Origin: an uncultured Ruficoccus sp.
GTDB taxonomy: Bacteria > Verrucomicrobiota > Verrucomicrobiia > Opitutales > Cerasicoccaceae
Direction: 5' to 3'
Assembly (NCBI GenBank): GCA_965140785.1
Contig: OZ223481.1
Coordinates: forward strand, 576,001-640,000
DNA length: 64,000 nt
Position 1 is the stretch's first letter, and each line of letters begins with the position of its first letter. This document shows, piece by piece, positions 36,126 through 57,186 of this stretch. A program made the position numbers and the translations under genes. The notes under the pieces are model-generated. The model was given only the letters and a program-made list of their open reading frames with translations, was not told where the DNA came from and did not search any database.

Positions 36126-36151
36126 GAAACAGGTAACGTTTGGACCCTCAA

Positions 36152-36260
36152 AAACTACGAAAATCGGACGTTTTTCGTAGTTTATTTGCGTCGATTGTTG
36201 TTTGTAAGTACTTGCTTATAAGTATATAATGGAATAGGTTCCGTAACCGGGTATGGGTAT
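36152..36260. repeat. Bipartite cis-element, copy 1 (hairpin + CGTAACCGGGTATGGGTAT)
   Basis: AAACTACGAAAA/TTTTCGTAGTTT stem at 36152-36183; 19-mer at 36242-36260; recurs at 55131-55240. Confidence 0.8.
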
Positions 36261-36370
36261 ACCCGAACCATGTTAGCGCACCAGCCTCCCTCGCATAGTT
36301 TCTAGACGCATTAGGCTAGTTCCAGTTCTTGCTGATGTTGTAGGCGATGACACTCAGAACCCTTGTGCGT

Positions 36371-37006
36371 TTACCTGAAATTCCGCTCTGCCATTTTGGG
36401 TACGAGCACCACCGAAAATGCTTTGCTGACAAATATTCTTAGATGGTAACCCTTTTGGACGGATGAGTACTCCCAGTAGGAAGGGATTCGTTTGTTGGTA
36501 AAGTAGTCCGTCCTGTACTTTACGTTTAGCTCAGGGATACCGTAGGAGCTCATGAATAATTTCGCGAAATCACGTCCTGTGAGGTCTGCTACTTTAAAGA
36601 GGTGGTTGACGCCTTCCTCGGTAAGCATGAAACCGATAACAACATTTTCGTAAACATAGACTGCGCCGTAATTTACCCCGTTTACTTCAAATTGGTTAAT
36701 GATCTGTGGACTATGCCCGATGGGAAAGACGAAATCCGGTGGAATATCCTGTTTCAAATACTTGATGTTCCCCTCGACAACTTGATTCAGTTGGCTGGTA
36801 AACTCTCTTGCCGCCATGCCGGGGTATAGCCCGTGGACGATCAAGCCTGCGCTATACTCGGGTACATAAAAGCGAGAGTCAGGTATGGATTGCCTGGTCC
36901 CTCCTTCATCGGGATTTTCCGTTTGAGCCGTGGCAACGGATACAACATTCATGATGCCGATAAGCAGGGCGAGGTGCAGGGTTACATTAGGCAGTAGGTT
37001 TTTCAT
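36371..37006 (-). CDS. Hypothetical secreted protein
   Basis: 211-aa ORF with signal peptide, coupled to the upstream gene. Confidence 0.65.
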   Translation of the reverse strand: MKNLLPNVTLHLALLIGIMNVVSVATAQTENPDEGGTRQSIPDSRFYVPEYSAGLIVHGLYPGMAAREFTSQLNQVVEGNIKYLKQDIPPDFVFPIGHSPQIINQFEVNGVNYGAVYVYENVVIGFMLTEEGVNHLFKVADLTGRDFAKLFMSSYGIPELNVKYRTDYFTNKRIPSYWEYSSVQKGYHLRIFVSKAFSVVLVPKMAERNFR

Positions 37007-37458
37007 TTTGTGGGCTTTATTTTGATTAAATCGTGTATGTCAGGCTGCCTATGGATGCGGACCGCTAACACGGTGATTGGCAGCCGAAAGCTCTCCGTAA
37101 CCTGTTCCAGGCGCAGCAGGTATTTTTCGTCGGAGGGACTTTCGATAATCAGGATGATGACCGCCTGGTTCCCTGACTCCGCCGCGTAGTTCAGGCTTTG
37201 TCCAATGGCCTCGGCCCACTTGTCCGCGAACTCCACCTCGATCGCGTACTTATCTGTCAGGATGTCGCAGCGGGTTCCGTTGGGAAGAACGACTTCGGTA
37301 TGACCATCCAGAACGCCCGCCGCCTGCTCCTGATAGTAAGACTCGGGATTTTTACGTGCCGCTTCCAGGGATGTGACTGCCAGCAGAAGGGGAAGGAGGT
37401 ACCTCAGCCGCAGGTACTGGAACAAGCGCTCTGGCGGTATTTTAAAGCCGTTTCGCAT
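37003..37458 (-). CDS. Hypothetical protein, possible PD-(D/E)XK-like fold
   Basis: EVVLPNGTRCDILTDKYAIEVEF..KWAEAIGQSLNY; hydrophobic N-terminal segment. Confidence 0.6.
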   Translation of the reverse strand: MRNGFKIPPERLFQYLRLRYLLPLLLAVTSLEAARKNPESYYQEQAAGVLDGHTEVVLPNGTRCDILTDKYAIEVEFADKWAEAIGQSLNYAAESGNQAVIILIIESPSDEKYLLRLEQVTESFRLPITVLAVRIHRQPDIHDLIKIKPTK

Positions 37459-37697
37459 GTTTAAAGTCGATTCGCATGTCTTGCGGGCCGGGTCAGTGGA
37501 GCGGGGATCTACCTTGCGGGTGTAGCCGGTTGAGCGGTTCGAGGTCGTGGTGGCAGATTTTCGGATGGTGTGCGGTTATGGAGGCGTGATCCGGGCATGA
37601 ATGCACAATCACCTCATGATCATGGGGTCTGTGTGTCAATTAAAAACCTTACGTTCATGGGGTGTCCTGCCGAACCCTGCGCTCGTATGGTGGTCGG

Positions 37698-37910
37698 GTG
37701 AATAATTCTCTGACGGAACTGGGCGATCGCCTGCGGGCATTACGGGCCAAACACGGCCTCACGCAGGAGGAATTTGCCCAACTGGCTGGCATCGGCTACA
37801 AGTTCTACCAGCAGATCGAGGGAGCGCGTAAAAAGGAGATCTGGCTCTCGACCGTCGAACGTCTCGCCGCCCCCTACGGCCTGCGCGCCTGGCAACTCCT
37901 GGCTCCCTGA
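37698..37910 (+). CDS. XRE-family HTH regulator
   Basis: LRALRAKHGLTQEEFAQLAGI..YQQIE. Confidence 0.85.
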   Translation: MNNSLTELGDRLRALRAKHGLTQEEFAQLAGIGYKFYQQIEGARKKEIWLSTVERLAAPYGLRAWQLLAP

Positions 37911-38138
37911 CATGCCCGAAGATTCCAAGCTGACCCGCAAAGTCCCCAGCAGCCGGGTGCATCGGGGGTAGGCTAAATCAAACGCGAAATTCGAGAGGGA
38001 GGTTGATACGAAATCCCTCAACCTCTTCGGTCTGCCCGGACGAATAGTCTAGATCATGCTGAATTCGGTACTTCGAATAAGTTTTGAACTATCAATATAT
38101 ATCTTGCAGATGCTATGTTATCACCCTGTAATACAGTG

Positions 38139-38290
38139 ATGCCTATTACTGAAAGCTTACCGGATCTCGTTAAGTCCGTGCGAAAACAGCTAGGACTGAG
38201 TCAAGAAGGCCTGGCGAGGGAGATTGGTGTCAGTTTTTCAAGCATTAGCCGGTGGGAAAGCGGCAAAACGGCACCCATGCCCCTGCAACG
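38139..38290 (+). pseudogene. XRE HTH regulator, probably truncated
   Basis: VRKQLGLSQEGLAREIGVSFSSISRWESGKTAP, then similarity is lost next to a transposase remnant. Confidence 0.65.
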
Positions 38291-38364
38291 GAGACAGTCT
38301 AAAGGAACGCCTGGGGGAGGAGGCGAGGGTCCGGATTGCGGCGACCACGTTTTCGATCTATGCC

Positions 38365-38490
38365 TTCGAGGCTCTTTGAGAATGCGATTTTCCTCCAACA
38401 GGTAGTCGATGACTGTCTGCTGTTTACGCCCCTGACCACTCGGCCAGCCCAGTAGAAATGTCAGTAGAGCTGTAAATTGTGTATCCAAAG
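38365..38490 (-). mobile_element. Transposase N-terminal remnant
   Basis: LLGW..KQQTVIDYLLEENRILKE, resembling the N-terminus of integrase-core transposases. Confidence 0.5.
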
Positions 38491-38877
38491 TAACGTATTC
38501 TGTTTTTCTGCAATTAGTTATCAAACATAGGTTCTCTATCTGAGGATCATGAGGTTGTATGGGGCAGAATCGAAATTGTCGTAATTATCAAACCTTTCTA
38601 CGCTTTGATTCCCATCCTTGGATCTTCAATGACAAGGTTTATGACGGATTACTGATCGACAGTTTTGTAGTCATAGCTTCTGTCTGTCGTTTTTTTTTGC
38701 GAGTCGTCGAGGGTAGAGAATATGCAACACTCTTAGTCGTTGTTTTTAGTCGCAACGTTCTTGTATTCATTGATTTGAATTGGTTCAGATTTAAAACACT
38801 TTCCAGTCCTGAGCTACTTTTGTATATTTTCACAATCAACTTCCGTTTATGTATTGTTTAACCTCATCACAAATATC

Positions 38878-39909
38878 ATGAGAATCTCTATGCCTTACTC
38901 GTATAAAATATTGTCTAGCCGTAGCCGAATGGTCTTAGTCACGGCTTTCTTTGCTTTTTCTGCGTTCTCTGTTAAGCTTGATGCGGCATTGCTGGCCTAT
39001 GAATCTTTTGATTATGGCCAGAGTAGCAGTAATCTTAACCTAGTTTCCGAGAGTCAGCGTCAAACCGGACTGGGCGGGACGTGGAATTCAGTTCCCGGAT
39101 ACAACATTCCTTGGTACAATGCCGGATCGAGTCTTTCGTTTGGCTCCCTGCAGACATTTGGCGGTCACATCGCTCAGTCGACCAGTACGGCTAACGGGCG
39201 GGCAAAGGTTCCGCTGGGCGTCGATACAAAAGGGACGACCGGAACTATATACCTGAGCTATCTGTTCCGCGCCGAGCCCTACGGCGGGGCAGAGTATAAT
39301 CCAGGGGTTGCGGCCTATGTCTCGCTCAATTCCTCCTCGTTCTTTGGCTCTTCGCAGGCCATATCGGATACAAGCGGCGTGCTTACTACGGATGCCCGAT
39401 ACAGCAATATCATTGCCTCCAGCGGATTGTATGGGGCCTCGAATGCAGATTTAAGAGCGCTGCAGGCATCTACAACCTACATGGTTATTACCGAATTTAC
39501 AAACGTTGGGTTGCCGCTTACCGGAGGCAACCCGGGGGTTGCAACGATGTGGGTGCTTACTTCTGCGCAGTACGACTACTTCATAACTAGTGGAGCCACG
39601 ACAGAGGCGCTGAATGCGGCGTCTATCGGCAGCGATGCCGACTCTGTCTTCTCTCGCGGTAGCGCACCCAAGTCCAGCGGTACCTGGACTCTGGCCGAGG
39701 ATGCATCCCTGACTGTTTATATGCATCCTTCTGTAGACAATTACTCAGCCTCTGTCGGTGCATACTTCCGCATGGATGAGATCCGGCTTGCGACAACGTT
39801 ATCCGATGCATTAACCGGTACGGTTGTTATTCCGGAGCCATCGGCCGTCGCGTTTGGAATCGGAGTCATTGCTCTAGTTGCGGCTGTTATGCGCCGCCGC
39901 CGCTCCTGA
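38878..39909 (+). CDS. PEP-CTERM surface protein
   Basis: Signal peptide, LLAYESFDY, MDEIRLAT, IPEPSA + TM + RRRR. Confidence 0.9.
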   Translation: MRISMPYSYKILSSRSRMVLVTAFFAFSAFSVKLDAALLAYESFDYGQSSSNLNLVSESQRQTGLGGTWNSVPGYNIPWYNAGSSLSFGSLQTFGGHIAQSTSTANGRAKVPLGVDTKGTTGTIYLSYLFRAEPYGGAEYNPGVAAYVSLNSSSFFGSSQAISDTSGVLTTDARYSNIIASSGLYGASNADLRALQASTTYMVITEFTNVGLPLTGGNPGVATMWVLTSAQYDYFITSGATTEALNAASIGSDADSVFSRGSAPKSSGTWTLAEDASLTVYMHPSVDNYSASVGAYFRMDEIRLATTLSDALTGTVVIPEPSAVAFGIGVIALVAAVMRRRRS

Positions 39910-40007
39910 TCTTCATCCGATTATTATGTACACAGATTTCCGGCCAGACTTGTCTGTGCTGGCCGGGAATCATTTATCTTCCCCGTCTGATTTGAAAAAA
40001 TACGATC

Positions 40008-40733
40008 ATGGAAAAGCCTTTAGTGATTCAGGACGGATCTCGTTGTCGTGGTCGGCATGGTTTTACTCAGACCGAATTACTCGCCGCAATCGCAATCATT
40101 CTGGTGCTGGCGGCCATCATTATCCCCGTTGTGGGCATGGTGCGCGAGGGAGCGACGGTTGTTCAATGCCAGTCAAACCTGCGGCAGATCTATACTGCAT
40201 TGATGATATTCACCGTAGAGAACGATGACTATCTGCCTCCCGGTCCGAACTGGCCGAAGGGACTAACCTACACTCAGTACGGCGGGTATTCGGCAAGCAA
40301 CTACTCGCAGATGGCATCGCATCTGGCCCCCTATATGGGCAAGGAGGTATTGACTGGTGACCGCATTGACACGACCTGGTTTTGCCCTGGGCAGTCCAAG
40401 GGTCCTTCCACCTTTTTTGAGTTTGCAAACTGTCGCTGCTATGCGATTCCGTATTTCGGGAGCTACAGCAATTATCCGTTTGGTAATATTCATCAGGGGG
40501 GCATGAAGTCTTCGAGAATGAATGACTATCTGGGGGACAGACTACCCAGTGTTGCGTGGGTGTTGCGTGATATTGACCGCAGTGTTTCCCGCTATGATGT
40601 TCCCGATGTCACCCCGTCGCGCAGTCACAGAAATGGGCACAACTTCCTTTATTTCGACGGATCTGTACGTCTGCTTACGGATCAGGAGCAGGCTGAAAGG
40701 CTTGTCGAGATCGAAAGCGGAAGAAGACCCTGA
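40008..40733 (+). CDS. Prepilin-type protein with H-X9-DG tail
   Basis: GFTQTELLAAIAII, CQSNLRQI, HRNGHNFLYFDGSV. Confidence 0.88.
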   Translation: MEKPLVIQDGSRCRGRHGFTQTELLAAIAIILVLAAIIIPVVGMVREGATVVQCQSNLRQIYTALMIFTVENDDYLPPGPNWPKGLTYTQYGGYSASNYSQMASHLAPYMGKEVLTGDRIDTTWFCPGQSKGPSTFFEFANCRCYAIPYFGSYSNYPFGNIHQGGMKSSRMNDYLGDRLPSVAWVLRDIDRSVSRYDVPDVTPSRSHRNGHNFLYFDGSVRLLTDQEQAERLVEIESGRRP

Positions 40734-40805
40734 TAGGTGTAGTGTATGATCTGATAGATATCGGAGTAACGATATTCTATGTTCTAATTAAAATTATTTT
40801 ATATC

Positions 40806-41837
40806 ATGTCTATAAGTCAAACAGCGATAAGCTACTATGGTCTTAGTTATGTTGAACACGCAGAGCGGGATTTTCGCGAGATGGCCGGACATGGCTGCTC
40901 AACGGTGATTCTTGCTGTTACCGAGTTCGATTTTGATTTCTGGAGGCCGAACATCGGTAAGATTGTTGATCAAGCTCATGAACTCGGGTTGAGGGTTCTG
41001 CTGGATCCGTGGGGGATCGGCAAGTTCTTTGGCGGAGAGCAGGTCAGCCTATTCCTGCAAAACAATATTGAAAACCGTCAGGTTTCGGCCCTCACCGGAG
41101 AGAAACTTCCGTATGCCTGCTTTAATACTCAAGCATTTCGTGATTATTTTCAGAATATCTGCCTCACGCTTGCCCGCGAAACAGATGCGGACGGATTTTT
41201 CTGGGATGAACCGCACTACGCGTTCCCTAAGTCCTATGCATCGATTACGGGCGGGGCAGGGGATGACTGGAGCTGTCGCTGCCCTGTGTGCATGGCGAAG
41301 TTCAAGACGTACTATGGTTATGAAATGCCGCGCCTGATGAATGATGATGTGAAGCAGTTTCGCTGGCGTGAAGCGCTGTTTATTTTGGAGGATACCTCGC
41401 GGAAGCTCAAGGAACTCAAGCCGCAACTGGAGATAACCTGCTGCGTACATGCCACGCTCAACAGCTACTACGTAACCGAGCATCGCGGCTACGATAACTG
41501 GGACATGGTGGCAGCATCGCCTTATTTTGACGTGTTCTCAACGACAATCATCAATTGGGATCTGCCGCATTCCTTCTTTGAGCACATCACACGCCGGACA
41601 GTTGAGATTGCTCGGAAACATGGGAAAAAGTCGGAGCGCTGGCTGATGGGCTATTACAAGCAGCCTGCCGATTTTTCTGATCTGGATAAGGTTGTCGATC
41701 TCTATGTTGATCTCGGCGTCGATCGCCTGGCCACATGGACGTACCGTGGAGGATACGGCACCGTTCTTGCCGCTCCGGACGCGATCAAGCTGTGGGATAA
41801 GATTGGCGAAAACTATAACCGTGTTCTTGTTAAATAA
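40806..41837 (+). CDS. Putative glycoside hydrolase (TIM-barrel), family unclear
   Basis: AHELGLRVLLDPW, DGFFWDEPH, CRCPVC; no signal peptide. Confidence 0.6.
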   Translation: MSISQTAISYYGLSYVEHAERDFREMAGHGCSTVILAVTEFDFDFWRPNIGKIVDQAHELGLRVLLDPWGIGKFFGGEQVSLFLQNNIENRQVSALTGEKLPYACFNTQAFRDYFQNICLTLARETDADGFFWDEPHYAFPKSYASITGGAGDDWSCRCPVCMAKFKTYYGYEMPRLMNDDVKQFRWREALFILEDTSRKLKELKPQLEITCCVHATLNSYYVTEHRGYDNWDMVAASPYFDVFSTTIINWDLPHSFFEHITRRTVEIARKHGKKSERWLMGYYKQPADFSDLDKVVDLYVDLGVDRLATWTYRGGYGTVLAAPDAIKLWDKIGENYNRVLVK

Positions 41838-41848
41838 ATTTTATTGTT

Positions 41849-42607
41849 ATGAGAGATCTTAATGACTTTGGATATCTTGATCAGGTTGTTAGCAACCTGA
41901 AAAAAGTGAAAGAAACTCAGGCGGAGAATATCGCAGATGCCGCGCGACTTATGGCTGGCGCAATTGCGGAGGATCGCCTGATCCATGTGTATGGCGGCGG
42001 CGGCCACACGACTCTGGTTATGGGTGAAATGTTTTTCAGAGCCGGTGGCCTTGCCAACATCAACCCGATTATGGAGACGGGACTTTCCGTATTTAATCAG
42101 GCGTTGAAGTATCTGGAACTGGAGCGCACGGAGAACTATGGCTCTGCCATTGTGAAATACTATGAGCTGCAGGAAGGAGATGTTCTGATCATATTCCATA
42201 ACATCGGGATTAACGCAGCGACGATTGATGCGGCAATGGAGGCAAAGAGAGCTGGTGCGAAGATTATCGCCGTTTCCAGCAGTTTCTGGCAGAATGAAAT
42301 GCCGTCAGATCATTTCATCCGACACAGTTCGGCACGGAATCTTTTTGAATTCGCCGATGTGTGTATCGATGACTTTAATCCTGTCGGGGACTCAGTTGTG
42401 ACTGTTCCTGGGTTTGCGACTCCGATCGCACCGATCTCCAATGTGGTAGACTTTACTATCGCCCACTGGCTGGAGATTGAGTGCATTCGTCAATGCGTTG
42501 AGCGCGGGGTTGTTCCTCCGGTCTGGCGGAGTGCAAACGCTCCGGGAGGTGATCAGTTTAATGCTGAGAATCTTAAAAAGTACCGCCCGCTGGTTAAAAG
42601 TCTTTAG
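41849..42607 (+). CDS. SIS (sugar isomerase) domain protein
   Basis: IHVYGGGGH, EMFFRAGGL, PPVWRSANAPGGD. Confidence 0.85.
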   Translation: MRDLNDFGYLDQVVSNLKKVKETQAENIADAARLMAGAIAEDRLIHVYGGGGHTTLVMGEMFFRAGGLANINPIMETGLSVFNQALKYLELERTENYGSAIVKYYELQEGDVLIIFHNIGINAATIDAAMEAKRAGAKIIAVSSSFWQNEMPSDHFIRHSSARNLFEFADVCIDDFNPVGDSVVTVPGFATPIAPISNVVDFTIAHWLEIECIRQCVERGVVPPVWRSANAPGGDQFNAENLKKYRPLVKSL

Positions 42608-42625
42608 GGGAAATGCCGAATGAAA

Positions 42626-42656
42626 CCCTGATCCGAAAGTCATTTTCGGATCAGGG
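42626..42656. terminator. Intergenic 13-bp stem-loop
   Basis: CCCTGATCCGAAA/TTTCGGATCAGGG; no U-tract, so possibly an mRNA stabiliser. Confidence 0.5.
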
Positions 42657-42691
42657 ACAGTCTCTAAAAATTGCTATAAATACCCTCTATT

Positions 42692-46132: not shown

Positions 46133-46249
46133 GGAGCGGGGTGGCCTCTGTATCCGTAATGGGTCGGATTGCTGTTTGCGGGCGATCTGCGCAGGTGGGA
46201 CAATCGCTGTTTTACCCGACTGAATTTTAAATAAATATCCGCTTTAGTT

Positions 46250-46900: not shown

Positions 46901-48002
46901 CATACTCATTGCCGGAACGGGAAACCCGCATATCCCTGCTTACCTTCGGGGGAGCGGGCGTGATGTGAGCGGGCTGAACATCGTTGCAGTTTCGGATGCG
47001 GACGCAGGGCGTTTGGAGCGGGCGGGGGAAATGCTCGGTGACGACTCCGCCCGTGTACGCTTTTACCGTGACCACAGGGAAATGTTTGCCGCGCATCCGG
47101 ATGCGGATGCCGTGATTATCGGCAGTGATAATATCGATCATCTACGCATGTTTGAAGATGCGGTTTTCCACAATTTTCACATCTTTATGATGAAGGTGAT
47201 CTCGATGGATGAGAGAGAGTGCCGTCGGATGCTTGAGTTGGTCAAGAGCTATGACAGGGTGGTGCAGTGCGAGCTGGAGCTGCACTTTCACCCTCAGTTC
47301 AGGGCTGCGCGGGAGCTTGTCCGCTCGGACAGACTGGGCGAAATAAAATCCATATACCTGAGCAATATCAGCCAGAGCCCTTGCAATTATTTCCCCAACT
47401 GGGGCGACCCGGTGCTGTCGTACGGAAAGAAAATTCCGATTCGTCCGGGAGCGGATTATTACCGCGGAGGGGCATTGACTGATCACCCCCATGCCTTTGA
47501 CATGGTGCGCTGGATTACCGGTGCAGAGTTTGATACCGTGCGTGCGCTGTCTGCCCTGAACCAGCGTTCGCATCTAGAAGTTGAGGATCATGTTGCCGTC
47601 ATGGGGCGTCTGGACAACGGCGTGAAATATTTTATCAATCCTTCGTACTCCAATCTGGAGGAGCGGGTTGCGACACGCAGATTGCTCTGGCCGAAATCTT
47701 TGGAGTGTAATCTGAAGATCACGGGCACCGCAGGGTATTATTCCTGTGATTTCTTTGACCATCACTGCTACATAATCGGTAGCAATTATGTCTCTGCAAA
47801 TCGTCTGATCGTTGACAGCACTCCGCGCCCTAAACCCGATCAGGATGATTCGATTATCGGGAGCTTTATTGCGTGCATCCATAAGCGGCGGGAGCATCCC
47901 GAGTCTGCGCTGGCCGATTCTTATGCCGCAGTAAGAGTGATGAATGCGGCCTATGAGTCGATTTATCATAATTGCGAAATCACACTGGAGCCGCTGCGGT
48001 AA
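46887..48002 (+). CDS. Gfo/Idh/MocA-family oxidoreductase
   Basis: IAGTG, DAVII, GGALTDHPHAFD, EVED. Confidence 0.88.
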   Translation: MQKINILIAGTGNPHIPAYLRGSGRDVSGLNIVAVSDADAGRLERAGEMLGDDSARVRFYRDHREMFAAHPDADAVIIGSDNIDHLRMFEDAVFHNFHIFMMKVISMDERECRRMLELVKSYDRVVQCELELHFHPQFRAARELVRSDRLGEIKSIYLSNISQSPCNYFPNWGDPVLSYGKKIPIRPGADYYRGGALTDHPHAFDMVRWITGAEFDTVRALSALNQRSHLEVEDHVAVMGRLDNGVKYFINPSYSNLEERVATRRLLWPKSLECNLKITGTAGYYSCDFFDHHCYIIGSNYVSANRLIVDSTPRPKPDQDDSIIGSFIACIHKRREHPESALADSYAAVRVMNAAYESIYHNCEITLEPLR

Positions 48003-49348
48003 TGAGTGTTGTTGAAAATACGTATCGCTGTGGCACGCTGACTTACACGAGGCTCGGATTGATCAATCTGTTCGTCTGGCTGCTGTGGGGAGACTTTTGT
48101 TATACCATCATGGCTACCATGATGCCGACTCTGGTCCCGCTGATGCTGCGCAGCCATGATGCCAGTAATTTCACGATCGGACTTTTGGTCGGGAGCGTAC
48201 CTGCGATCCTGAACTTTATTATCAATCCGATTGTCAGCACAACCAGTGACCGTACGCGGAGCCGCTGGGGACGCCGCCGTCCGTTCCTGATGTTCTCACC
48301 ACCTTTTGTGGTGATATCGCTGATCCTCCTTGGCTGGAGCGACAACATCGGCGCATTCTTCTATCAGATGGCTTGGGGAGATGAGGGGAGCCCGGCAACA
48401 TTCATCATCTGCCTGATTGCCATCTTTACGATCTCATATCAGGCCTTTGATCTGTTTGTCGGCGCAGTGTACTCTTATCTGTTTGCCGATGTTGTGCCGC
48501 TGCAGTTTATCGGCCGCTTTATGGCTCTGTTCCGTATGGTCGGTGCATTGGGCGGAATGTGCTTCAATCTTGTCGTGCTGCCGTTGGCCGATGTGCATAT
48601 GCCTATGATCTTTACGGTCATTGCGATTATCTACTTTCTCAGTTTCACTGCAATGTGCATTAATGTGAAAGAGGGCGAGTACCCGCCTCCGGCAACGGTT
48701 GCCCCCGGTATTTTGCCAATGGTGAAGATGTATGTGCGGGAATGCTTCAGTATCCCCTTCTTTTTCATTCTGTTTATCGGGCTCGGGATGAACTACGCAT
48801 CCACGGTTTGCCGTGGAATATTCAATCTGCTTTTCGCTACCGAGACGTTGGGCCTCAGCCTGAGACAGTATGGGAATATTGCAGTCGTTGGCTCGATTGT
48901 CGCCATTGTGCTCTATATCCCTGCCGGTATTCTGGTTGACCGGCTTCACCCGCTGCGGGTTTACATGATGGGGGCCGTGCTAGTCATACTTGCAAATTTA
49001 TTTGGATTTTTCTTCGTCAGCGATTTCTACAGCTTCTTCATCGTCGCCGTCGTTATTGCGATTGTCTACGTGTTTCAGGACAGCAGTATGCTGCCTATCT
49101 GTGTTAAGCTCTATCCGAAGGCAAAGTTCGGGCAGTTTTGTTCGGCTGCGGCTATGGTGAAGGCGCTGCTCCTTGTGGCGGCCAATGCCGGTGGGGGAGC
49201 ATTTATTGACTGGCTTGGGTATCAGTATATCTTTATCTGGGACCTTATATTCACTTCGATTTGCTTATGTGTCCTTATCTGGGTATATCGCAAATGGAAG
49301 ACTCTCGGCGGAGATCGGAACTACACGCCGCCGTGTGTTGAAACGTAA
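48002..49348 (+). CDS. MFS transporter
   Basis: SDRTRSRWGRRRPF motif; about 12 hydrophobic segments. Confidence 0.9.
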   Translation: MSVVENTYRCGTLTYTRLGLINLFVWLLWGDFCYTIMATMMPTLVPLMLRSHDASNFTIGLLVGSVPAILNFIINPIVSTTSDRTRSRWGRRRPFLMFSPPFVVISLILLGWSDNIGAFFYQMAWGDEGSPATFIICLIAIFTISYQAFDLFVGAVYSYLFADVVPLQFIGRFMALFRMVGALGGMCFNLVVLPLADVHMPMIFTVIAIIYFLSFTAMCINVKEGEYPPPATVAPGILPMVKMYVRECFSIPFFFILFIGLGMNYASTVCRGIFNLLFATETLGLSLRQYGNIAVVGSIVAIVLYIPAGILVDRLHPLRVYMMGAVLVILANLFGFFFVSDFYSFFIVAVVIAIVYVFQDSSMLPICVKLYPKAKFGQFCSAAAMVKALLLVAANAGGGAFIDWLGYQYIFIWDLIFTSICLCVLIWVYRKWKTLGGDRNYTPPCVET

Positions 49349-49404
49349 TGCGGGTCAGGCCTGCGATGTGCTGCATCTCTGATGCTGCGTTGTTGCCGGT
49401 AGCA

Positions 49405-50466
49405 TCAGGGCGCCGGAGTGCTCTTTAACGGACCGCGCAGAGTCGGCCCCTCCGTCCACTGCGGGCGGAGCAGCAACTCGCGGCTTGCTGAAGGAATGCC
49501 TGTGTCACCGCGCAGGATGAGGCTGTGCATGAGATCGATTGCTCCTTCGCCGATCTGATCGACGTTAAGGATGATGCCTGCGGCCTCGGGCGAATGGATG
49601 TTGGTAATCAGTGAAACACCGACATCTTCAGGCACCCTGACTCCGGTGGAGCGGATCCAGTTGATGGCTTTTACCTGCGGTGTCACCACGACTTCGGGTC
49701 TTTCGCTGAGAAACCACTCGGTGAAGTCTTCCTGCTCGATCTGGTCGGGCAAATAGGGGCGGACGTACTCCAGCTTCCGGTCGTGGGGCAGGTGCCATTC
49801 TTTACTGAGGCCACCAAGCCACTCAAACCGGTGTCGTTGCAATAAATGGCGTTGCTGTGCGAGGCCGATTCTGCGCACTCCGCGTGCTTTGAGTTGTTTG
49901 CAAATCAGATGCATCGACGAATACGCGTCAACTGCCACGCGGTGCCATTGTTCGACATAGGCAGGGTCGCCAACTCCGACGCCGACCAATGAATAGTATT
50001 TCCAGTCCATCTTTGGCAGCTTCGCGGTTTCATTGCGAAAAGGCAGAACGATTAGACCTCTTGTGCCTCGCGCCTTCAGAATACGATCCGGCTGCTTCCA
50101 ATTGTGTAGGTGCTTTTCTAAAAGAACTTCGTTCAGGGCATAGCCGTATAAAGCCGCAGCCTTATGCATTCCCGACAGGCACAGCTTGAGCCATGAGTTG
50201 TCTTCGCCAGCACGGTCATCCGTCCAGCAGTCATCAATGATAACTGCAAGATTTGCCAGTGCGCGCCGCTGGCCACGCCGTGCAACCAGTGCGGCCAGTA
50301 TCGGATCTGGCCTGTAGCCCAATTCCTTGGCAGCCTCTCTGAGCCGTGCCCGTGTGGAAGCTGCGATTTCTGGGTTATTACGTAGCCCCATGCTTGCGGT
50401 TGCTATGCTTACGCCGGCATGGTTTGCGACATCTCTCAACGTGATGTTTTTTTCGTCAGATGGCAT
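49405..50466 (-). CDS. LacI-family transcriptional regulator
   Basis: ITLRDVANHAGVSIATASMGL, LGYRPDP, VPEDVGV. Confidence 0.92.
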   Translation of the reverse strand: MPSDEKNITLRDVANHAGVSIATASMGLRNNPEIAASTRARLREAAKELGYRPDPILAALVARRGQRRALANLAVIIDDCWTDDRAGEDNSWLKLCLSGMHKAAALYGYALNEVLLEKHLHNWKQPDRILKARGTRGLIVLPFRNETAKLPKMDWKYYSLVGVGVGDPAYVEQWHRVAVDAYSSMHLICKQLKARGVRRIGLAQQRHLLQRHRFEWLGGLSKEWHLPHDRKLEYVRPYLPDQIEQEDFTEWFLSERPEVVVTPQVKAINWIRSTGVRVPEDVGVSLITNIHSPEAAGIILNVDQIGEGAIDLMHSLILRGDTGIPSASRELLLRPQWTEGPTLRGPLKSTPAP

Positions 50467-50495
50467 AATCCCCTTTGATATGTATTTATATGCAG

Positions 50496-51579
50496 CGCGG
50501 ATTCCAACTTCTAAGGAATCATTGTTGTGCTGGGTTGAGCTGGTCAAGCTGCGAGGTGTAGTTTGAGGTTGTTGGGTGAAAGGAAGTGGAGGGTTTTGCG
50601 TGGGCGTTGGTTGAGTTGGGCTTCGATGTGGGCGAGCCTAGGCTCGCCCACATCGAGGAAGTTCGTGCCTTTGGGAAAGTATTGTCGGACCAGTCCGTTG
50701 AAGTTCTCGAGGCCGCCTTTTTCCCATGAGTGGTAGGGCTTGCAAAAGAATCCGGCTGCGCCGAGGGCCTCACTGAGGCGTTGGTGTCCGGCGAACTCGA
50801 GCCCGTTGTCATAGGTGATGGTGTGCACGCGGTAGCCTTGCAAGGCGGCGATGATGGCCTCAGCGGTCTCGTTGGCATCTTTGCTTTGCAACAGTGCCAG
50901 CCGCCCATAGCGGCTCTTGCGCTCGTAAAGGCTCAGCACGTAACCACCACCCCGGCAGCCCGCGATGAGGTCCGCCTCCCAGTCGCCGTAACGCTCGCGC
51001 CGCTGCACGATGGCAGGCCGCAGCTCAATGTCCACGCGGGCCGGAAGCTTGTGGCGGCGGGCTTTGTTCTTGTGCCGATAGCGGCGTTTACCGTTGATGC
51101 GCAGGTGCAGGTAAAGCTGGCCTCCGCGGTCGCGCTCGGCCTGGATAAACGTGTAGATGCTCGTGCGCGAAGGAACCGCCTGGCCTTCGCGACGCAGCGC
51201 CCCGCTGATCTGCTCGGGGCTGTGCTTGCACTCAAGCCGCTCACGCACAAGGGTCTCCAACTCTGCCTCGATCACTCGGTGGCGGCGACGCTTGCCGCGT
51301 TGACGCTCAAGCGCCTTGGCATGCGCCTGACCAGGACGATAACCGCGTAGCCCGTGATTACGACTCAGCTCCTTGCTGATCGTCGATTGAGAAAATCCCA
51401 GATAATGGGCGATCTCACGCTGACTCTTTCCGGCTTTACGCATGCGATAAATGATGGGACGATCCTCCACGCGGAGGCGACGGTAGCTCTTCTTCGGCAT
51501 TTTGATTGTGGTAAATCGCAATGCTTGAGCACCTGCTCGACCTCCGCACCTTTTTATTCCCTAGATGGTGGCATCCGCC
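50496..51579 (-). mobile_element. IS30-family insertion sequence, apparently intact
   Basis: Imperfect terminal IRs GCGGATTCCAACTTCTAAGGAAT / GCGGATGCCACCATCTAGGGAAT; CAG duplicated on both flanks. Confidence 0.9.
50544..51521 (-). CDS. IS30-family transposase
   Basis: SPEQIS, GDWEADL, TYDNGLEF, PYHSWEKGGLENFNGLVRQYFPKG. Confidence 0.95.
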   Translation of the reverse strand: MRFTTIKMPKKSYRRLRVEDRPIIYRMRKAGKSQREIAHYLGFSQSTISKELSRNHGLRGYRPGQAHAKALERQRGKRRRHRVIEAELETLVRERLECKHSPEQISGALRREGQAVPSRTSIYTFIQAERDRGGQLYLHLRINGKRRYRHKNKARRHKLPARVDIELRPAIVQRRERYGDWEADLIAGCRGGGYVLSLYERKSRYGRLALLQSKDANETAEAIIAALQGYRVHTITYDNGLEFAGHQRLSEALGAAGFFCKPYHSWEKGGLENFNGLVRQYFPKGTNFLDVGEPRLAHIEAQLNQRPRKTLHFLSPNNLKLHLAA

Positions 51580-51626
51580 CAGCTTAATATTGCGATTTTA
51601 AAGGAATAAATCGCTGGTTTGATTGC

Positions 51627-52117
51627 TTAACTTATACGGAATTTACGCCTATAGGATTGCGGGGTAAGACCAATGACTTTTTTGAATCCGCGGTTGAAGT
51701 GGGCGCTGTCGGCAAATCCCAACTGGTGGGCAATCTCTGAGGATGTCGCGTTGCTGGAAAGCAGGCGGCGGCATGCGCGATGAATCCTTCGGCGTTGGAA
51801 ATAATCGCTGGCAGTCAGTCCTGTAGTCATCTTAAAAAGTCGACAGAAGTGTGATGCGGATGCTCCAGAATGGGAGGCAATCATTTTCATATCGGGCGTT
51901 TCTCCGGTACGTACCGGTCGTTCGATTTCCAGTAGTCCGCGCATGACGGAATCGGGCCATGCTCTGCTGGCTGTTGCATTGAACTCGCGTACGTAGGAGC
52001 GAATCATGCGGATCAGGCACTTAAGAAAGCAGGCCTCAAGGAACAGCGTCTGTCCGTCGGGGGAATCGCCCTTGCGTTGAAGTTGTTGAAAGTCGACAAG
52101 ACATTCGTCTAGCTGTC
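51627..52117 (-). pseudogene. AraC regulator, 5' part removed by IS3 insertion
   Basis: LGFADSAHFNRGFKKVIGLTP; the frame runs into the IS3 left end. Confidence 0.8.
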
Positions 52118-53162
52118 TGAGCCTCCCGAAAGTGGTCCATTGCTGATGAGATGATTTTCTGTCAGATGACAGATAATCGAGTATGAAACGAGGAAGACGA
52201 AGCACCGAAGAGATCATCCGCATCCTTCGCGCGAGCGAAGGGCTAAACGTCGAGGATGCCTGCCGCGAGCACGGTATCAGCACGGCGACGTACCATCGCT
52301 ACAAGCGCCAGTATGGGGGGTTGGATGTGAAGGAGGCACAGCGGCTACGGGACTTGGAGAAGGAGTTCACGAGCGTAGCGAGAAGGCCTGACACTCCGAG
52401 TTGAAGAAGCTGCTTGCCGACCAGTTGCTCAAGACCAAAGCCCTTGAGATTGCGTTGGAAAAAAACGCCTGAGCCCGGATCACCAGCGCGGGGCGGCCGC
52501 CAAGGTCGTCGCCGCGCTTCGGTGCTCCGGGAGACAAGTGTGCCGGTGGCTGGACATTCATCGATCAACCTATCGTTACCAACCCAAGCCGCTGCCCGAG
52601 AAGAAGCGGCTGCTCGAAGCCCAGATCGTGAAGATGAGCCAAGGTCACGCGCAAACTGCGAGAGGCCGGTTGGGCCGTGGGCAAGAAGCTGGTGCAACGC
52701 GTACGTCGACAAGAGGGCCTGCAAGTGCCTGCTCCTAAACCACGCACACGTCGTCAGGGCTTGTCGACCGGACTGCCGCAGCAGGCCACGCATCGCAACC
52801 ATGTCTGGGCCTGGGACTTCGTCTCCGACCATACTCAGCGCGGCGGCGCCCTGCGTTGCGTTAACCTCATCGACGAGTTTACGCGGGAGTGTCATTGCAT
52901 CCATGCGGATCGCTCGATCAAGGCCGATGATGTACTCGCCGTGCTCAAGCAGGCAATCGCCACCCATGGCGCGCCCGAGTATATCCGCTCCGATAATGGG
53001 CCTGAGTTTATCGCCAGGCCCATTAAGCGCTGGTTGGCCGACAACCAGATCAAGACGCTCTATATCGATCCGGGGTGCCCTTGGCAGAATGGCTACGTCG
53101 AATCCTTCAACAGCCGCTTCCGGCAGGAGTGTCTGGATCGCGAACTGCTCTATACCCTCAGC
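52118..53162 (+). mobile_element. Degenerate IS3-family element (orfA/orfB)
   Basis: TG-start left end; orfA HTH at 52183; A-run slippage site near 52460; orfB WAWDF, RSDNGPEF, PWQNGYVESFN; internal indels; 3' end cut by IS66 end. Confidence 0.85.
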
Positions 53163-53442
53163 GTAAGCGTCACGTGTAGCACCATCGGATATGGCTTGTC
53201 TTGGCCCTTGTGGTCGTATGTGGGCGAGCTACGACGGTTATGACAGTTACGACTCAGGCTGCGTGCGGCGCTGTGAGCCGTTTGCTTTTGGCAATGGCGA
53301 CAGGAGTCATACTCGGGATGCGTCGAGTGGTGGCAGCCGGGAGGGTTTTGAGCAGGAAGAGGATGTAGGGGTCGAGGCCGTGTCGCTTGGCGGACTCGAT
53401 GAGGGTGGAGAGGATGGCGGAGGTTTCCGAGTCGATCATCAT
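53163..53442 (-). mobile_element. IS66-family right-end remnant
   Basis: GTAAGCGTC terminus; STLIESAKRHGLDPY TnpC C-terminal motif. Confidence 0.7.
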
Positions 53443-53446
53443 ATCC

Positions 53447-53555
53447 CAGCTAAAAGTAAAGTCCCCCCTCTTGCTGCCCCTGCATACGAGGCGAGTACGG
53501 AAGGGGAGCTTTTCTGGGAATGTAAACCATGGTTTACACTTTGGTGGTCGGCATG
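53447..53555. repeat. ~105-bp direct repeat, copy 1 (contains palindrome TGTAAACCATGGTTTACA)
   Basis: Near-identical to 54189-54293. Confidence 0.9.
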
Positions 53556-53630
53556 CTGACCCAAACGTAGAAGTGCAATTAACATTTAAATTATTGACAT
53601 GACCCCTTCCTCTCCTGCAATGACACTGTT

Positions 53631-54067
53631 ATGACTACCGATAGGTTTGAAAAAAAGCTCTTCGAGAAGTAAAAAAAGAACAACCGGATTTTCAAAAAGC
53701 AGTTCGGATTCTAGAAGAAGGCATAGCCTTGGGGTCGGGTGAGTGCTCTTACGCGCTGGGAACGTGGTACCTTCATGGCGAACATGTCAAAAAAAACATG
53801 AGACGTGCAATATCTCTGTTGAGAATAGGGGTAAAGTGTGGAATTGCAAATGCTTGCTACGATTTAGCAGTATGCTATGAAAATGGAGCCGGTGTAAGGA
53901 AAAATTTATCCAAAGCATTTGAGTTATATACATTGGCAATGTTAAATGGAGATAAGCAATCGATTATGGAAATTGGGAGGTGTTTCTATTATGGGATAGG
54001 AGTTGAGGTAAATAGGAAGGTCGCTAGAGTATGGCTTGATCACGCCAATGCGTTAGGTCTAAAATAG
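53631..54067 (+). CDS. SEL1/TPR-like repeat protein (AT-rich; 1-nt frameshift in an A-run near the start)
   Basis: YALGTWYLHG, YDLAVCYENGAGV, EIGRCFYYGIGV repeats. Confidence 0.8.
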
Positions 54068-54188
54068 AGGCTTACAAGCAGACAGCATTCTTGTGGTGCA
54101 GCCACAGTTTCAGCTTCTCTTGTGCATGTTGGCGGGTTGGATGAATCGCCAACAGCAGCAGCTGATCGAGTATTTTCAGGTGGTGCGT

Positions 54189-54293
54189 CAGCTAAAGAAA
54201 AGCCCCTCTTGCTGCCCCTGCATACGAGGCGAGTACGGAAGGGGATCTTTTCTGGGAATGTAAACCATGGTTTACACTGTGGTAGTCGGCATG
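54189..54293. repeat. ~105-bp direct repeat, copy 2
   Basis: Near-identical to 53447-53555; lies just downstream of the DUF932 gene. Confidence 0.9.
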
Positions 54294-54330
54294 TCTTGGC
54301 ACTCTTGAGGGCGCGGGTGTCCGCTTCTGC

Positions 54331-55101
54331 TCAGTTCAGCCCTAAGGTTTTGTCGAGGAGTTGGTGGAGGCGGTGGGTGCGTTCGGGGAGGAGGCCGATG
54401 CGGCCCTTGAAGACCTCGGTGAAGGCGTTCTGGAGGCTCCAGGCGGTGCGGGGCTTAAAAACCTCATGCCGGGGGTGGCGCCATTCGTGCAGGACTTTGG
54501 GGATGTACCCGTTGGCCATGACACCGGCATCCACAGCGCGGATGATGAGGTCGTGGGCGCAGCGGTCGTTGAGGCGGACGCGGCGGTAATAATCGACCCG
54601 CCGGTCGTGTCGGTCCCAGTAGCGTTTGAGGCCCGCGACAGCATCCATGGCCAGCGCGGGCAGGTCTTGAAGGATGCGCGGGGTGTGTTTGCGAGCGAGT
54701 TGTATCTCCCCGGAGAAAGAGAGATTGTCGCAGACGAGGACTTGGCTTCCGGCAACGACCCCGGCGGAGAAGCGTTGGTCATGGCTGTTGCGCACACCGA
54801 CGACGTAGTTGTATTCGAGTCCCGATACGTGGGCGTCGATTTCGAGCAGGCCAAAGTACCGGGCGCGGTCATGGGTGAGCCCGTGGGCCTGTCCGGCGAC
54901 GGTAAAACCCTGTTCGAGCAAGGCGATCTCGACGACCTGCAAGAGCTGGATGTGCGGAATGGGCCTCCACGTGCGGGTGGCACGGGGCGTTTCGGTCTGG
55001 GCAAGTTCGCTCAGGCTGATGGCATGGCTACCGTGGTGCAGGAGCAGGTTGCAGCGCTTGGGAGCGGCGGGTGAGACGGGTTCGAGGGTGTCTGTGATCA
55101 T
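54331..55101 (-). CDS. DUF932-like protein
   Basis: TRTWRPIPH, GVRNSHD, VLVCDNLSFSG, RKHT, TAWSLQNAFTE. Confidence 0.78.
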   Translation of the reverse strand: MITDTLEPVSPAAPKRCNLLLHHGSHAISLSELAQTETPRATRTWRPIPHIQLLQVVEIALLEQGFTVAGQAHGLTHDRARYFGLLEIDAHVSGLEYNYVVGVRNSHDQRFSAGVVAGSQVLVCDNLSFSGEIQLARKHTPRILQDLPALAMDAVAGLKRYWDRHDRRVDYYRRVRLNDRCAHDLIIRAVDAGVMANGYIPKVLHEWRHPRHEVFKPRTAWSLQNAFTEVFKGRIGLLPERTHRLHQLLDKTLGLN

Positions 55102-55130
55102 GGTTTTTGTGGGTTGGATTTGAGGGTTAA

Positions 55131-55240
55131 AAACTACGAAAAATGTTCGATTTTCGTAGTTATTGGAAAATGCTTACCAGCCTGCATGGTCGATGAATAA
55201 AGGCCCCGTTCGTCGCGGTGTCGTAACCGGGTATGGGTAT
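55131..55240. repeat. Bipartite cis-element, copy 2
   Basis: AACTACGAAAA/TTTTCGTAGTT stem at 55132-55161; identical 19-mer at 55222-55240. Confidence 0.8.
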
Positions 55241-57155: not shown

Positions 57156-57186
57156 AATGGTTCCTTTGCTTGCGACCGTGCAGGTA

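Follow-up and report, generated by a model that had tools for sequence, protein, structure and literature searches.

According to the available part of PMC11551731, pipolins are bimodular defence islands. Their polymerase, piPolB, is reported to have no strong need for a particular template sequence when priming, and multiple origins have been proposed (PMC5695915, available in part). The window analysed here, a stretch of 64,000 nucleotides from an uncultured Ruficoccus sp., carries an island resembling the pipolins in the accessible portion of PMC11551731, as it is integrated at a tRNA gene and combines a piPolB core with an exchangeable cargo block. It differs from them in that its cargo, which contains an IS30-like transposase, is a sugar-utilisation cluster, and in that sister islands, with cargo of restriction-modification and ATPase/helicase genes, can lack piPolB altogether. 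The main text of that article, in the portion available, contains no match for DUF932, hairpins, inverted repeats or origin.

The island is bordered on the left by attL, a 162-nt direct repeat of the tRNA-Gly end (32285..32446, 96% identical to 59493-59654) overlapped by a weak tRNA-like match at 32404-32460, and on the right by the attR repeat with tRNA-Gly(ccc) (59493..59683, minus strand). The piPolB gene (33636..36125, plus strand, 829 aa; PF03175, E 9.5e-13) encodes a protein to which the homologue of the sister pipolin in genome G001 is 73% identical. Beyond it lies the remnant 3' end of a convergent gene with a broken ORF (36316..36350, minus strand), homologous to the C-terminus of a 344-aa gene of G001 whose protein ends ..IAYNIGKNWN; positions 36242-36350 align to G001 at 73%, the matching frame in the window having been assigned by reading the sequence by eye. 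At the other end of the cargo is a DUF932 gene (54331..55101, minus strand, 256 aa; PF06067), homologues of which occur in 20 of the 401 genomes of the order sample. Next come a strong GC-rich intrinsic terminator (55315..55348, minus strand; 13 pairs, 10 of them G-C, then a T run) and the upstream operon that it closes (55375..57189, minus strand), which comprises a 78-aa small membrane-type ORF, a 105-aa ORF and a PD-(D/E)XK exonuclease, and is kept in all related islands examined. An HTH_17 excisionase/regulator-like gene (plus strand) and a tyrosine integrase gene (minus strand) occupy 57437..59432.

The sequence-only reading had reported a hairpin paired with a 19-mer, present twice in this island, and both copies were read in the window as described. 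The first hairpin, AAACTACG-AAAATCGGACGTTTTT-CGTAGTTT (36152-36183), starts 27 nt beyond position 36125, where the piPolB stop codon ends, and its 19-mer (36242-36260) follows 90 nt from the hairpin start. The second, AAACTACG-AAAAATGTTCGATTTT-CGTAGTT (55131-55161), is separated by 30 nt from the start codon of DUF932 (55101, minus strand) and is followed at 91 nt by an identical 19-mer (55222-55240). Each copy spans about 145 nt and forms a module of HP1, a spacer of fixed length and SL2. HP1 is a palindrome with 12-bp arms, an 8-nt centre and A and T runs on both flanks, whereas SL2 is a 46-nt imperfect dyad with the 19-mer as its 5' half. In the piPolB-side module (P), HP1 (36150..36183, centre TCGGACGT) was delimited from pattern, repeat and fold evidence, the AT-rich spacer covers 36184..36236 and SL2 covers 36237..36282 (plus strand; covariance model 60.0 bits). 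The sequence TTGTAA-17-TATAAT lies in this spacer on the plus strand (36202-36230). In the DUF932-side module (D), HP1 (55129..55162) has the same arms around the centre ATGTTCGA, the spacer (55163..55216) contains the genus-conserved blocks GGAAAATG and CCTGYATGKTCGATRAAT, and SL2 lies at 55217..55262 (plus strand; 65.3 bits), with the backbone operon of 55375..57189 ending in its direction. Pairwise comparison of the two window spacers found no alignable similarity; the spacer varies freely in sequence but not in length.

Such a pair is not expected by chance. With up to three mismatches the 19-mer has two matches in the window against 0.01 expected, and the hairpin pattern has four (two sites, each on both strands) against 0.05; neither count was reached in 100 shuffles. 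Across the whole genome (4,361,983 bases in 50 contigs, 90.85% complete), matches to the hairpin are confined to the two window sites, and the 19-mer is found there and once on another contig with three mismatches, a reversed control also matching once. A generic promoter or terminator scattered over the genome is thus ruled out by the pattern and covariance-model searches. The same searches recovered 13 copies in five genomes, which belong to two genera within one Verrucomicrobiota family (two in the genome of the window, G000, five in G001, three in G002, one in G013 and two in G014; a sixth genome, G003, has none). All are intergenic and lie within one family of islands, with none elsewhere in those genomes. 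The module is a conserved non-coding unit of this tRNA-integrated island family, found in both genera.

The element is not specific to pipolins. Nine of the 13 copies lie upstream of DUF932, mostly in islands lacking piPolB, three at the piPolB stop and one upstream of piPolB. Three islands of G001 carry the module without piPolB, and in module-bearing G013 and G014 no piPolB match was obtained at E <= 1e-10. Among related pipolins, the two closest have the module beside piPolB with the same spacing, but it was not found in three more distant pipolin loci. In G000 HP1 lies 27 nt past the piPolB stop, in G001 it includes the stop codon, and in G002, where the piPolB-side copy has a collapsed HP1, a remnant is left 5 nt after the stop. 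The distance from HP1 core to 19-mer is 87-89 nt in each of the 12 copies whose HP1 is intact, despite unalignable spacers (11 values from the pattern search, the twelfth, 89, calculated by hand).

Both stems carry compensatory changes. Sequence conservation is seen in the HP1 arms and in the 5' half of SL2, 93.6% of the cells are paired against 31-52% in slid controls, six stem pairs are altered on both sides (9 of 500 shuffles yield as many) and the covariation score is matched by none of 500 shuffles. Together, these observations support the module as a real, selected, bipartite cis element. A functionless relic, that is an intergenic stretch duplicated once whose palindromes persist by self-correction through template switching, is a very remote prospect. 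It would agree with the collapsed HP1 in G002 and with homologous module-less islands that keep the same backbone, but motif sequences and register persist in both genera and at all three placements, whereas the spacer has become random, and the 19-mer is identical in two window copies without remaining spacer similarity.

Covariation could also reflect a small RNA or an untranslated-region element, either a short RNA of the 19-mer strand, begun at a promoter within the spacer, that would have SL2 as its 5' stem-loop and extend antisense into the convergent gene, or an opposite-strand element following the upstream gene, with the SL2 complement, the spacer and HP1 as terminator. On the plus strand, which carries the 19-mer, the folding energy of the module D SL2 is -28.8 kcal/mol (z -2.94), against -18.2 kcal/mol on the minus strand. 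The promoter-like sequence in the module P spacer ends 7 nt before SL2, and an A/T-rich box (TGAATAAA, TAATAA or TATAAT) falls in a shared set of alignment columns in most copies. In every copy SL2 is on the side of a convergent gene, whose 3' end lies 14 to about 220 nt away, and in G002 a GC hairpin with T5 follows SL2 on the 19-mer strand. However, these convergent genes belong to three unrelated families, making a gene-specific antisense role unlikely, and the gene-sense RNA of gene-upstream copies is complementary to that of gene-downstream copies, so one RNA function cannot serve both. In addition, the SL2 fold of module P (-15.9 kcal/mol, z -0.60) is no better than shuffles, a linker fixed within 1 nt is unusual for RNA and an Rfam search of the module gave no family match. 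We consider an RNA element improbable.

The sequence-only reading had noticed that the hairpin centre of one window copy is flipped relative to the other, and this holds: copy 1 agrees with the reverse complement of copy 2 at 14 of 16 positions and with its forward sequence at 11, and BLAST aligns the two on the minus strand at 91%, although 12 of these 16 positions are self-complementary and the signal is carried by just four asymmetric positions. The piPolB-adjacent centres resemble one another in the forward sense (forward/reverse 10/8, 12/7 and 8/7), as do the DUF932-adjacent ones, whereas comparisons between the classes favour reverse in 15 of 21 cases, with three ties and three favouring forward. 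On these alignments the opposite centre appears to be a long-standing, fixed distinction between the copies next to piPolB and those next to DUF932. Flip/flop loops from hairpin-primed replication or template switching had been suggested, but orientation is split by class and there is no sign of ongoing flip-flop; the public data are assembled contigs, in which minor forms are invisible, and they hold a single orientation, with no joint at the two modules. The flip looks like an ancient inversion of the palindrome, of the kind produced by template switching, which became fixed in the piPolB-adjacent lineage, and not like a trace of hairpin-primed replication.

The geometry of HP1, 12-bp inverted arms around an 8-bp asymmetric centre, is that of a tyrosine-recombinase core, which raises the question of a site for recombination or inversion at the joints between the piPolB block, the block of cargo with DUF932 and the integrase backbone, HP1 acting as a lox/FRT-like core and SL2 as an accessory site. 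The modules sit exactly at these joints, directly repeated around cargo and DUF932 in G000 and G001 and inverted around piPolB in G002. Between flanks of 96-100% identity the module forms a divergence trough (61-80%), it lies on opposite sides of a GC terminator in the two genera, and in one second-genus copy the HP1 half is common to one relative, the SL2 half and right flank to another. Nevertheless, the 8-nt window centres differ at two positions in inverted orientation, so that simple excision of the cargo is not predicted, and the recombinases found are limited to the tRNA integrase, which has the 162-nt repeats as its att sites, and the cargo transposase. G001 keeps five copies on one chromosome, four with near-identical HP1, in orderly and similar neighbourhoods. 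The copies had been said to bracket the entire variable cargo, which is loosely correct, but DUF932 and four genes conserved in the sister pipolin also lie between them, and homology with G001 breaks at about 38.3 kb and 54.19 kb, away from the modules. A recombination site is accordingly doubtful.

A signal for replication or for conversion of single-stranded DNA to duplex, comparable to plasmid single-strand origins, the two-hairpin minus-strand origin of filamentous phages and conjugative ssi/Frpo elements, is another candidate, which we regard as unlikely. HP1 and SL2 would then form by folding of the 19-mer strand and bring in a primase, RNA polymerase, piPolB or DUF932. Two hairpins lie at a fixed distance within about 145 nt, and in nine of 13 copies SL2 folds more stably on the 19-mer strand than on the other. 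Cells of the G-U type favour the same strand in SL2 (14 versus 3, ten of the 14 from four paralogues) and HP1 (6 versus 2), but the bias falls to about 6-7 versus 3 with paralogues counted once. The 19-mer strand is the DUF932 template strand and, in G000 and G001, the piPolB sense strand, the HP1 side of every module abuts piPolB or DUF932, and in G002 piPolB lies between two inverted modules. No account of a pipolin origin turned up in the texts searched; the accessible text of PMC11551731 has no match for 'origin of replication', 'hairpin' or 'inverted repeat'. On the other side stand the module's presence in piPolB-less genomes and islands and its absence from three more distant pipolin loci, the reported undemanding priming by piPolB and the multiple origins proposed (PMC5695915, available in part), the lack of a nickase, Rep or relaxase among the island ORFs scanned, and a DUF932 protein without an assignable fold, whose best structural match, the TnsE C-terminal domain (Z 7.2), is within background.

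A bipartite cis element, as first proposed, thus stands, but neither replication origin, priming signal nor recombination site is its best-supported reading. As a conserved non-coding module that polymerase-less islands also carry, it probably serves as a regulatory boundary and not as the replication origin of the polymerase. We tentatively favour a regulatory or boundary module working at the DNA level, while holding this to be somewhat short of an even chance. The module would act at borders between transcription units, with HP1 as a terminator-like or operator-like palindrome and SL2 as a second recognition dyad in fixed register, the two jointly insulating neighbouring genes and controlling their expression through a factor other than piPolB. 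HP1 faces the start of DUF932 (nine copies), the start of piPolB (one) or its stop (three). In the window the strong terminator ends the upstream operon immediately ahead of module D, so DUF932 must have a control region of its own at that point, and gene-upstream copies have a -10-like box (CATTTT, CATTCT or GATAAT, identified by eye only) 7-9 nt before HP1 on the gene-sense strand. Several observations count against a boundary module. A sigma-70 scan found no promoter around module D and one at module P, on the plus strand only, and a terminator scan flagged HP1 at neither window module. Second-genus copies have a GC terminator and T run separating HP1 from the DUF932 start, and transcription begun in the module would therefore end before reaching the gene; on the HP1 side of three copies there is no gene that could be driven. 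Homologous module-less islands, one of them retaining the backbone operon, have DUF932 directly behind the upstream terminator, which makes the module dispensable, and no backbone gene is specific to module-bearing islands, which leaves no candidate binding factor. The lean of SL2 G-U pairs to the 19-mer strand, much of it contributed by four paralogues, would suit a folded single strand better than duplex DNA.

Among known elements, the bidirectional intrinsic (Rho-independent) terminators found between convergent genes resemble HP1, whose stem-loop (about -12 to -13 kcal/mol) is preceded by an A run and followed by a T run, and which in three pipolins lies right where piPolB ends, opposite a convergent gene. 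In module P HP1 folds at -13.3 kcal/mol as RNA (z -2.84) and -10.3 kcal/mol as DNA (z -3.36), and in module D at -11.8 and -11.9 kcal/mol on the plus and minus strands (z -3.5 and -5.6). Unlike such terminators, its stem is AT-rich and kept in sequence across genera without drift, it stands before a start codon and not after a stop in ten of 13 copies, it is tied to a second conserved dyad at 87-89 nt, and a consensus terminator scan does not flag it. The tyrosine-recombinase cores loxP and FRT are organised as 13+8+13 and dif as 11+6+11; HP1 shares inverted arms of about 12 bp, an 8-bp asymmetric centre and an orientation varying between copies, but its centres are non-identical, it has no dedicated recombinase and assembled contigs hold no recombination product. 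Plasmid ssoA, the M13/f1 minus-strand origin and Frpo of the F plasmid are strand-dependent elements of about 130-200 nt with two hairpins. The module matches them in size, in its two hairpins and possibly in strand dependence, and departs from them in that its island has no rolling-circle Rep or relaxase among the scanned ORFs, its strand bias is weak and SL2 is too short for a folded -35/-10 promoter. Finally, the flip/flop terminal hairpins of parvoviruses and the small hairpin-loop inversions of plastids have an asymmetric centre between perfect inverted arms and occur in both orientations, as HP1 does. In contrast to parvovirus flip/flop, HP1 has one, lineage-conserved orientation per locus, inside a circularisable island and not at a linear end; on this comparison, its flip fits mutational inversion of the plastid type, not replicative flip-flop.

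The two sites proposed from the sequence alone were borne out exactly when the window was read again. The hairpin, AAACTACG-N16-CGTAGTT, lies at 36152 and 55131, and the 19-mer CGTAACCGGGTATGGGTAT at 36242 and 55222, 90 and 91 nt from the respective hairpin starts. Chance would give 0.05 hairpins and 0.01 19-mers, and none of 100 shuffles reached the observed counts. Comparison with related genomes revealed a larger element, a 46-nt imperfect dyad named SL2 (36237-36282 and 55217-55262), of which the 19-mer makes up the 5' half. The outer arms of SL2 are GGTGYCGTAA and TTACRGCACC, and it has an inner GGG-N3-4-CCC. In the hairpin, HP1, arms of 12 bp enclose an 8-nt centre, and A and T runs stand on the flanks. 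The whole module, of ~145 nt, comprises HP1, the spacer and SL2. As had been claimed, the spacer has diverged and its length has been kept: no alignment of the two spacers was obtained. In the assembly of the window's own genome (G000; 4.36 Mb, 90.85% complete), the hairpin is confined to the two window sites, and a covariance model of the second motif found the same two places and none besides. The 19-mer has one further match there, on another contig and with three mismatches, which equals the rate of a reversed control. With only two copies in G000, the element is not scattered genome-wide.

The island carrying both copies is a 27.2 kb pipolin that uses a tRNA-Gly gene as its site and ends in 162-nt direct repeats (32285-32446 and 59493-59654). 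Short extra repeats of the families D3, D6 and D8 lie by attL and attR, at 32274-32517 and 59439-59515, and may be remnants of earlier or tandem integrations. From left to right, piPolB (33636-36125) comes first, and to the right of module copy 1 are two minus-strand ORFs and two XRE-type HTH genes. The cargo of sugar-utilisation genes and an IS30-like transposase separates these from DUF932 (54331-55101, minus strand). Right of module copy 2 stand a strong minus-strand terminator (55348-55315) and a backbone operon encoding a 78-aa ORF, a 105-aa ORF and a PD-(D/E)XK exonuclease; an HTH_17 excisionase/regulator-like gene and the integrase occupy the right end. The exonuclease ORF (55864-57189) has 441 aa in the window and corresponds to two ORFs of ~158 and 273 aa in the related genome G001, reflecting either a fusion or a different start. 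The ORF facing copy 1 (36371-37006) is a broken homologue of a 344-aa gene of G001, and at 36441-36795 the contigs of both runs also hold a variant that skips 353 nt and has AATAA instead.

Among 101 related genomes, piPolB was found in three: G000, G001 (73% identity) and G002 (~50%, in two separate frames). Searches by motif, by pattern and by model yielded 13 module copies in five genomes, namely two in G000, five in G001, three in G002 and, in a second genus of the same Verrucomicrobiota family, one in G013 and two in G014. All 13 sit inside islands of one family, and G003 and G004, of the same genus as the window, have no copy. The pattern search matched six of 401 genomes of the order sample; one of these matches, in G521, is probably due to chance, since a reversed control matched four genomes once each. 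BLAST of the module against 401 genomes of the phylum sample matched only G000 and G001, apart from a 46-nt match (E 8.4e-4) over the terminator part. A scan of the genome collection with the 16-mer CGTAAYCGGGTATGGG is uninformative because ~500 chance matches are expected in 596 Gb; among the at least 119 stretches listed, the locus L055 alone has the hairpin and an extended SL2. The combined hairpin and 19-mer pattern had no match in metagenomes, viral contigs gave no module match, and blastn with a 211-nt module found none in plasmids and phages. A single metagenome match to the SL2 pattern was dismissed as chance, as it has neither hairpin nor outer stem. A MITE- or REPIN-like dispersed repeat was likewise rejected, the copies being too few (1-5 per genome) and all within one island family. 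The module is a new, conserved, structured intergenic cis element of mobile islands, and a narrowly distributed one, as it is seen in only five genomes of one family.

Nine of the 13 copies lie upstream of DUF932 (type D), where HP1 stands closer to the start codon in the window's genus (30 nt) than in the second (~70 nt). A module is present at nine of 23 DUF932 upstream regions (24 were extracted, one being cut by a contig end), a count that leaves out thirteen further partial or unlocated DUF932 matches. Three copies, one each in G000, G001 and G002, stand at the end of piPolB (type P). HP1 starts 27 nt past the piPolB stop in G000, contains the stop codon within its loop in G001 and has collapsed to a remnant 5 nt past the stop in G002. 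The remaining copy, again in G002, lies ~30-45 nt upstream of the piPolB start (type U) and is inverted relative to the type P copy, so that inverted modules bracket piPolB there. On its SL2 side, each of the 13 copies meets the 3' end of a gene running toward the module, at 14 to ~220 nt; this gene encodes the 78-aa ORF, a secreted-type protein of 344 aa or a protein of 159 aa. At 145 nt, with two conserved dyads, a fixed register and three placements with respect to piPolB and DUF932, the module is a compact candidate for a cis-acting site.

The sequence-only reading had proposed a replication origin, priming signal or recombination site of the pipolin. A real bipartite element does recur near piPolB, with the same spacing, in G001 and G002, but it is not specific to pipolins. 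Three of the four type D copies of G001 belong to separate islands with the same backbone, different cargo and no piPolB, and no piPolB match at E <= 1e-10 was found in the module carriers G013 and G014. Conversely, three more distant pipolin loci of the same class, two in G407 and one in G140, showed no module when 420-530 nt to either side of piPolB were examined; their piPolB identity is 33-37%, and ordinary GC hairpins lie by the gene. The co-occurrence expected of an origin specific to piPolB is therefore not observed, and such an origin with flip-flop hairpins is no longer the default reading. Rather, these pipolins form a branch of a larger island family whose members share the backbone and the module and elsewhere lack piPolB. 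The four related islands of G001 (L030, L031 and L032) are on one chromosome. The three without piPolB carry a methylase with a ResIII helicase, an RHS-repeat protein and DUF1573 proteins, and the piPolB-bearing one an AAA_15 protein with a UvrD-like helicase, a methylase and DUF4062.

The hairpin centre had also been described as flipped between the two copies, in the manner of flip/flop loops. The flip itself holds in the window, where copy 1 read forward and copy 2 reversed agree at 14 of 16 positions, and the two forward readings at 11 of 16; because the centre is 12/16 self-complementary, four positions decide the matter, and the T-T mismatch of one centre answers to an A-A mismatch in the other. 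Across genomes, the three piPolB-adjacent centres resemble one another in the forward sense, as do the DUF932-adjacent centres among themselves. Between the two classes the reverse sense was favoured in 15 of 21 comparisons, which are not independent, with three ties and three favouring the forward sense. Orientation is thus conserved by class, therefore a lineage trait and not a stochastic state, and nothing points to ongoing flip-flop. The contigs of two runs hold one form, with no joint at either module, although contigs drop rare forms. Inversion of a palindrome centre by template switching is a known mutational route, and hairpin-primed replication is unnecessary. A rolling-hairpin terminus of the flip/flop kind does not agree with the internal position of the module and the single orientation per locus in assembly and contigs. 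No HUH or Rep domain was found among the island ORFs scanned.

Both dyads are maintained by paired changes. In an alignment of 12 copies, 93.6% of cells hold standard pairs, compared with only 31-52% in slid controls. Both-side changes occur at six pairs, which nine of 500 shuffles matched, and the covariation score was reached by none of 500. HP1 offers the example of CTACG/CGTAG changed to CTGCT/AGCAG, and SL2 that of GGTG..CACC changed to GGTT..AACC. Twelve copies have an intact HP1, and in each of them 87-89 nt separate the HP1 core from the 19-mer; eleven of these values come from the pattern search and the twelfth (89) from separate motif data. This register, kept to within 1 nt over a free spacer, and the one conserved arm in each dyad point to a module that would be recognised, as DNA, by a protein complex.

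A transcribed element, either a small RNA or part of a UTR, appears improbable. The 19-mer strand gives the stabler SL2 in nine of 13 copies, and for the copy upstream of DUF932 in the window the fold reaches -28.8 kcal/mol on this strand vs -18.2 on the other. At the piPolB copy, however, SL2 folds no better than shuffles, and the strand on which HP1 folds more stably differs between lineages. A gene-sense RNA cannot cover all placements, since a copy upstream of a gene and one downstream would yield RNAs complementary to each other. Rfam 15, searched over 32000-60000 at E <= 1, returned only tRNA and three unrelated weak matches, none of them at the modules. A small ORF across the 19-mer was rejected by eye, its frame being lost in G013 and its start codon missing in G001.

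A signal for replication or priming on single-stranded DNA is also unlikely. A single-strand origin, an ssi site or an ssDNA promoter would take shape on one strand only. Among the non-Watson-Crick cells in SL2, those of the G-U type number 14 on the 19-mer strand vs three on the other, and four G001 paralogues contribute 10 of the 14. We also considered a broader version, in which the module is a cis-acting replication or block-exchange site of the island family, a two-hairpin element that acts through folded single-stranded DNA and is recognised by a protein, and hold it to be doubtful. Under this scheme the recogniser would be the product of the gene on the HP1 side, piPolB or DUF932, and the two HP1 orientations would mark two cognate proteins. 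Were it true, pipolins would have their first defined cis element, and DUF932 would gain a function.

Comparison of the DUF932 protein with PDB sequences gave nothing below E 0.6, no PHROG family was assigned and Foldseek returned no match at E <= 0.001. The AlphaFold model (pLDDT 83) consists of a five-stranded sheet followed by long helices. VIA-align matches it best to the DNA-binding C-terminal domain of TnsE, with a score (Z 7.2 over 119 residues) that lies within the stated background of the tool, and the protein atlas returned DUF932 clusters and no others. The portions of the literature on DUF932, YfjQ and YafZ that were accessible name no function.

The two modules had further been taken to bracket the entire variable cargo. 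Similarity to the G001 pipolin covers piPolB, SL2 with the end of the remnant gene and the two HTH genes (to 38297), and resumes at 54189-57262. The variable cargo therefore extends from behind the HTH genes to a 91-nt repeat located downstream of DUF932, so that its borders fall away from the modules. This direct repeat (53465-53555 and 54203-54293, 97% identical) contains an 18-bp perfect palindrome, TGTAAACCATGGTTTACA, and G001 keeps a copy just downstream of DUF932, at the right border of the variable cargo. Contigs at the repeat include one skip of 722 nt (53372 to 54095) and one joint between opposite strands (53608/54122). As a site of cargo exchange, the 91-nt repeat is a better candidate than the modules, and we consider it quite improbable that the modules serve recombination or inversion at block joints.

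The cargo itself (38854-52283) is a sugar-utilisation cluster and not a set of defence genes. It encodes DUF1559, SIS, a 1146-aa glycosyl-hydrolase-like protein, a GFO/IDH/MocA oxidoreductase, an MFS transporter and LacI and AraC regulators. To the left of attL (27025-32168), the host carries similar genes, for an AraC-type regulator, a GH42-like protein and DUF1559. The IS30-like transposase ORF (HTH_38 and rve; 50544-51521) within the cargo contains a 34-bp perfect palindrome at 50623-50656.

At the loci L161 and L180 of G013 and G014, identity drops to 73, 61 and 80% in 60-nt windows at the module, between neighbours at 96-100%. In this second genus the module also lies across a GC terminator from the side that it holds in the window's genus. 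It follows that the module either moves or evolves fast in comparison with its surroundings. Both dyads survive the trough through paired changes. A functionless relic, a reading that the collapsed HP1 of G002 would favour, is very improbable.

Our tentative preference is for a DNA-level regulatory boundary module of the island family, placed where the SL2 side meets an oncoming gene end and HP1 adjoins piPolB or DUF932. Against it, no promoter was shown, the second genus has a terminator between HP1 and DUF932, module-less islands exist and no binding factor stands out as a candidate. The idea of a trans factor restricted to module-bearing islands was rejected, as all backbone genes are also present in the module-less island of G003.

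In the parts available to us, the pipolin literature examined names no cis-acting site besides the att repeats, and PMC11551731, PMC5695915 and the DUF932 literature give no description of the module. The accessible text of PMC11551731, supplements aside, mentions neither DUF932, hairpins, inverted repeats nor an origin, and that of PMC5695915 reports that priming makes no strong demand on the template, and puts forward multiple origins. Among known systems, HP1 was compared with a bidirectional intrinsic terminator. Its stem folds at -11.8 to -13.3 kcal/mol (z -2.7 to -5.6), T runs of 3-6 stand on both flanks, and a consensus scan flags HP1 on neither strand. The three copies at the piPolB stop have the position of such a terminator, just past the stop codons of convergent genes, and the other ten lie ~30-70 nt before a start codon. 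The geometry of a tyrosine-recombinase core of the lox, FRT or dif kind, 12-bp arms around an 8-nt centre, is present in both window copies, but their centres differ at two of eight positions once oriented, and the sole integrase is served by att sites of its own, the 162-nt repeats at the tRNA gene. Integron attC sites pair RYYYAAC ... GTTRRRY boxes, carry extrahelical bases and are recombined by the IntI integrase. The base of the SL2 stem, ..CGTAAC ... GTTACG.., bears a partial likeness to them by eye.
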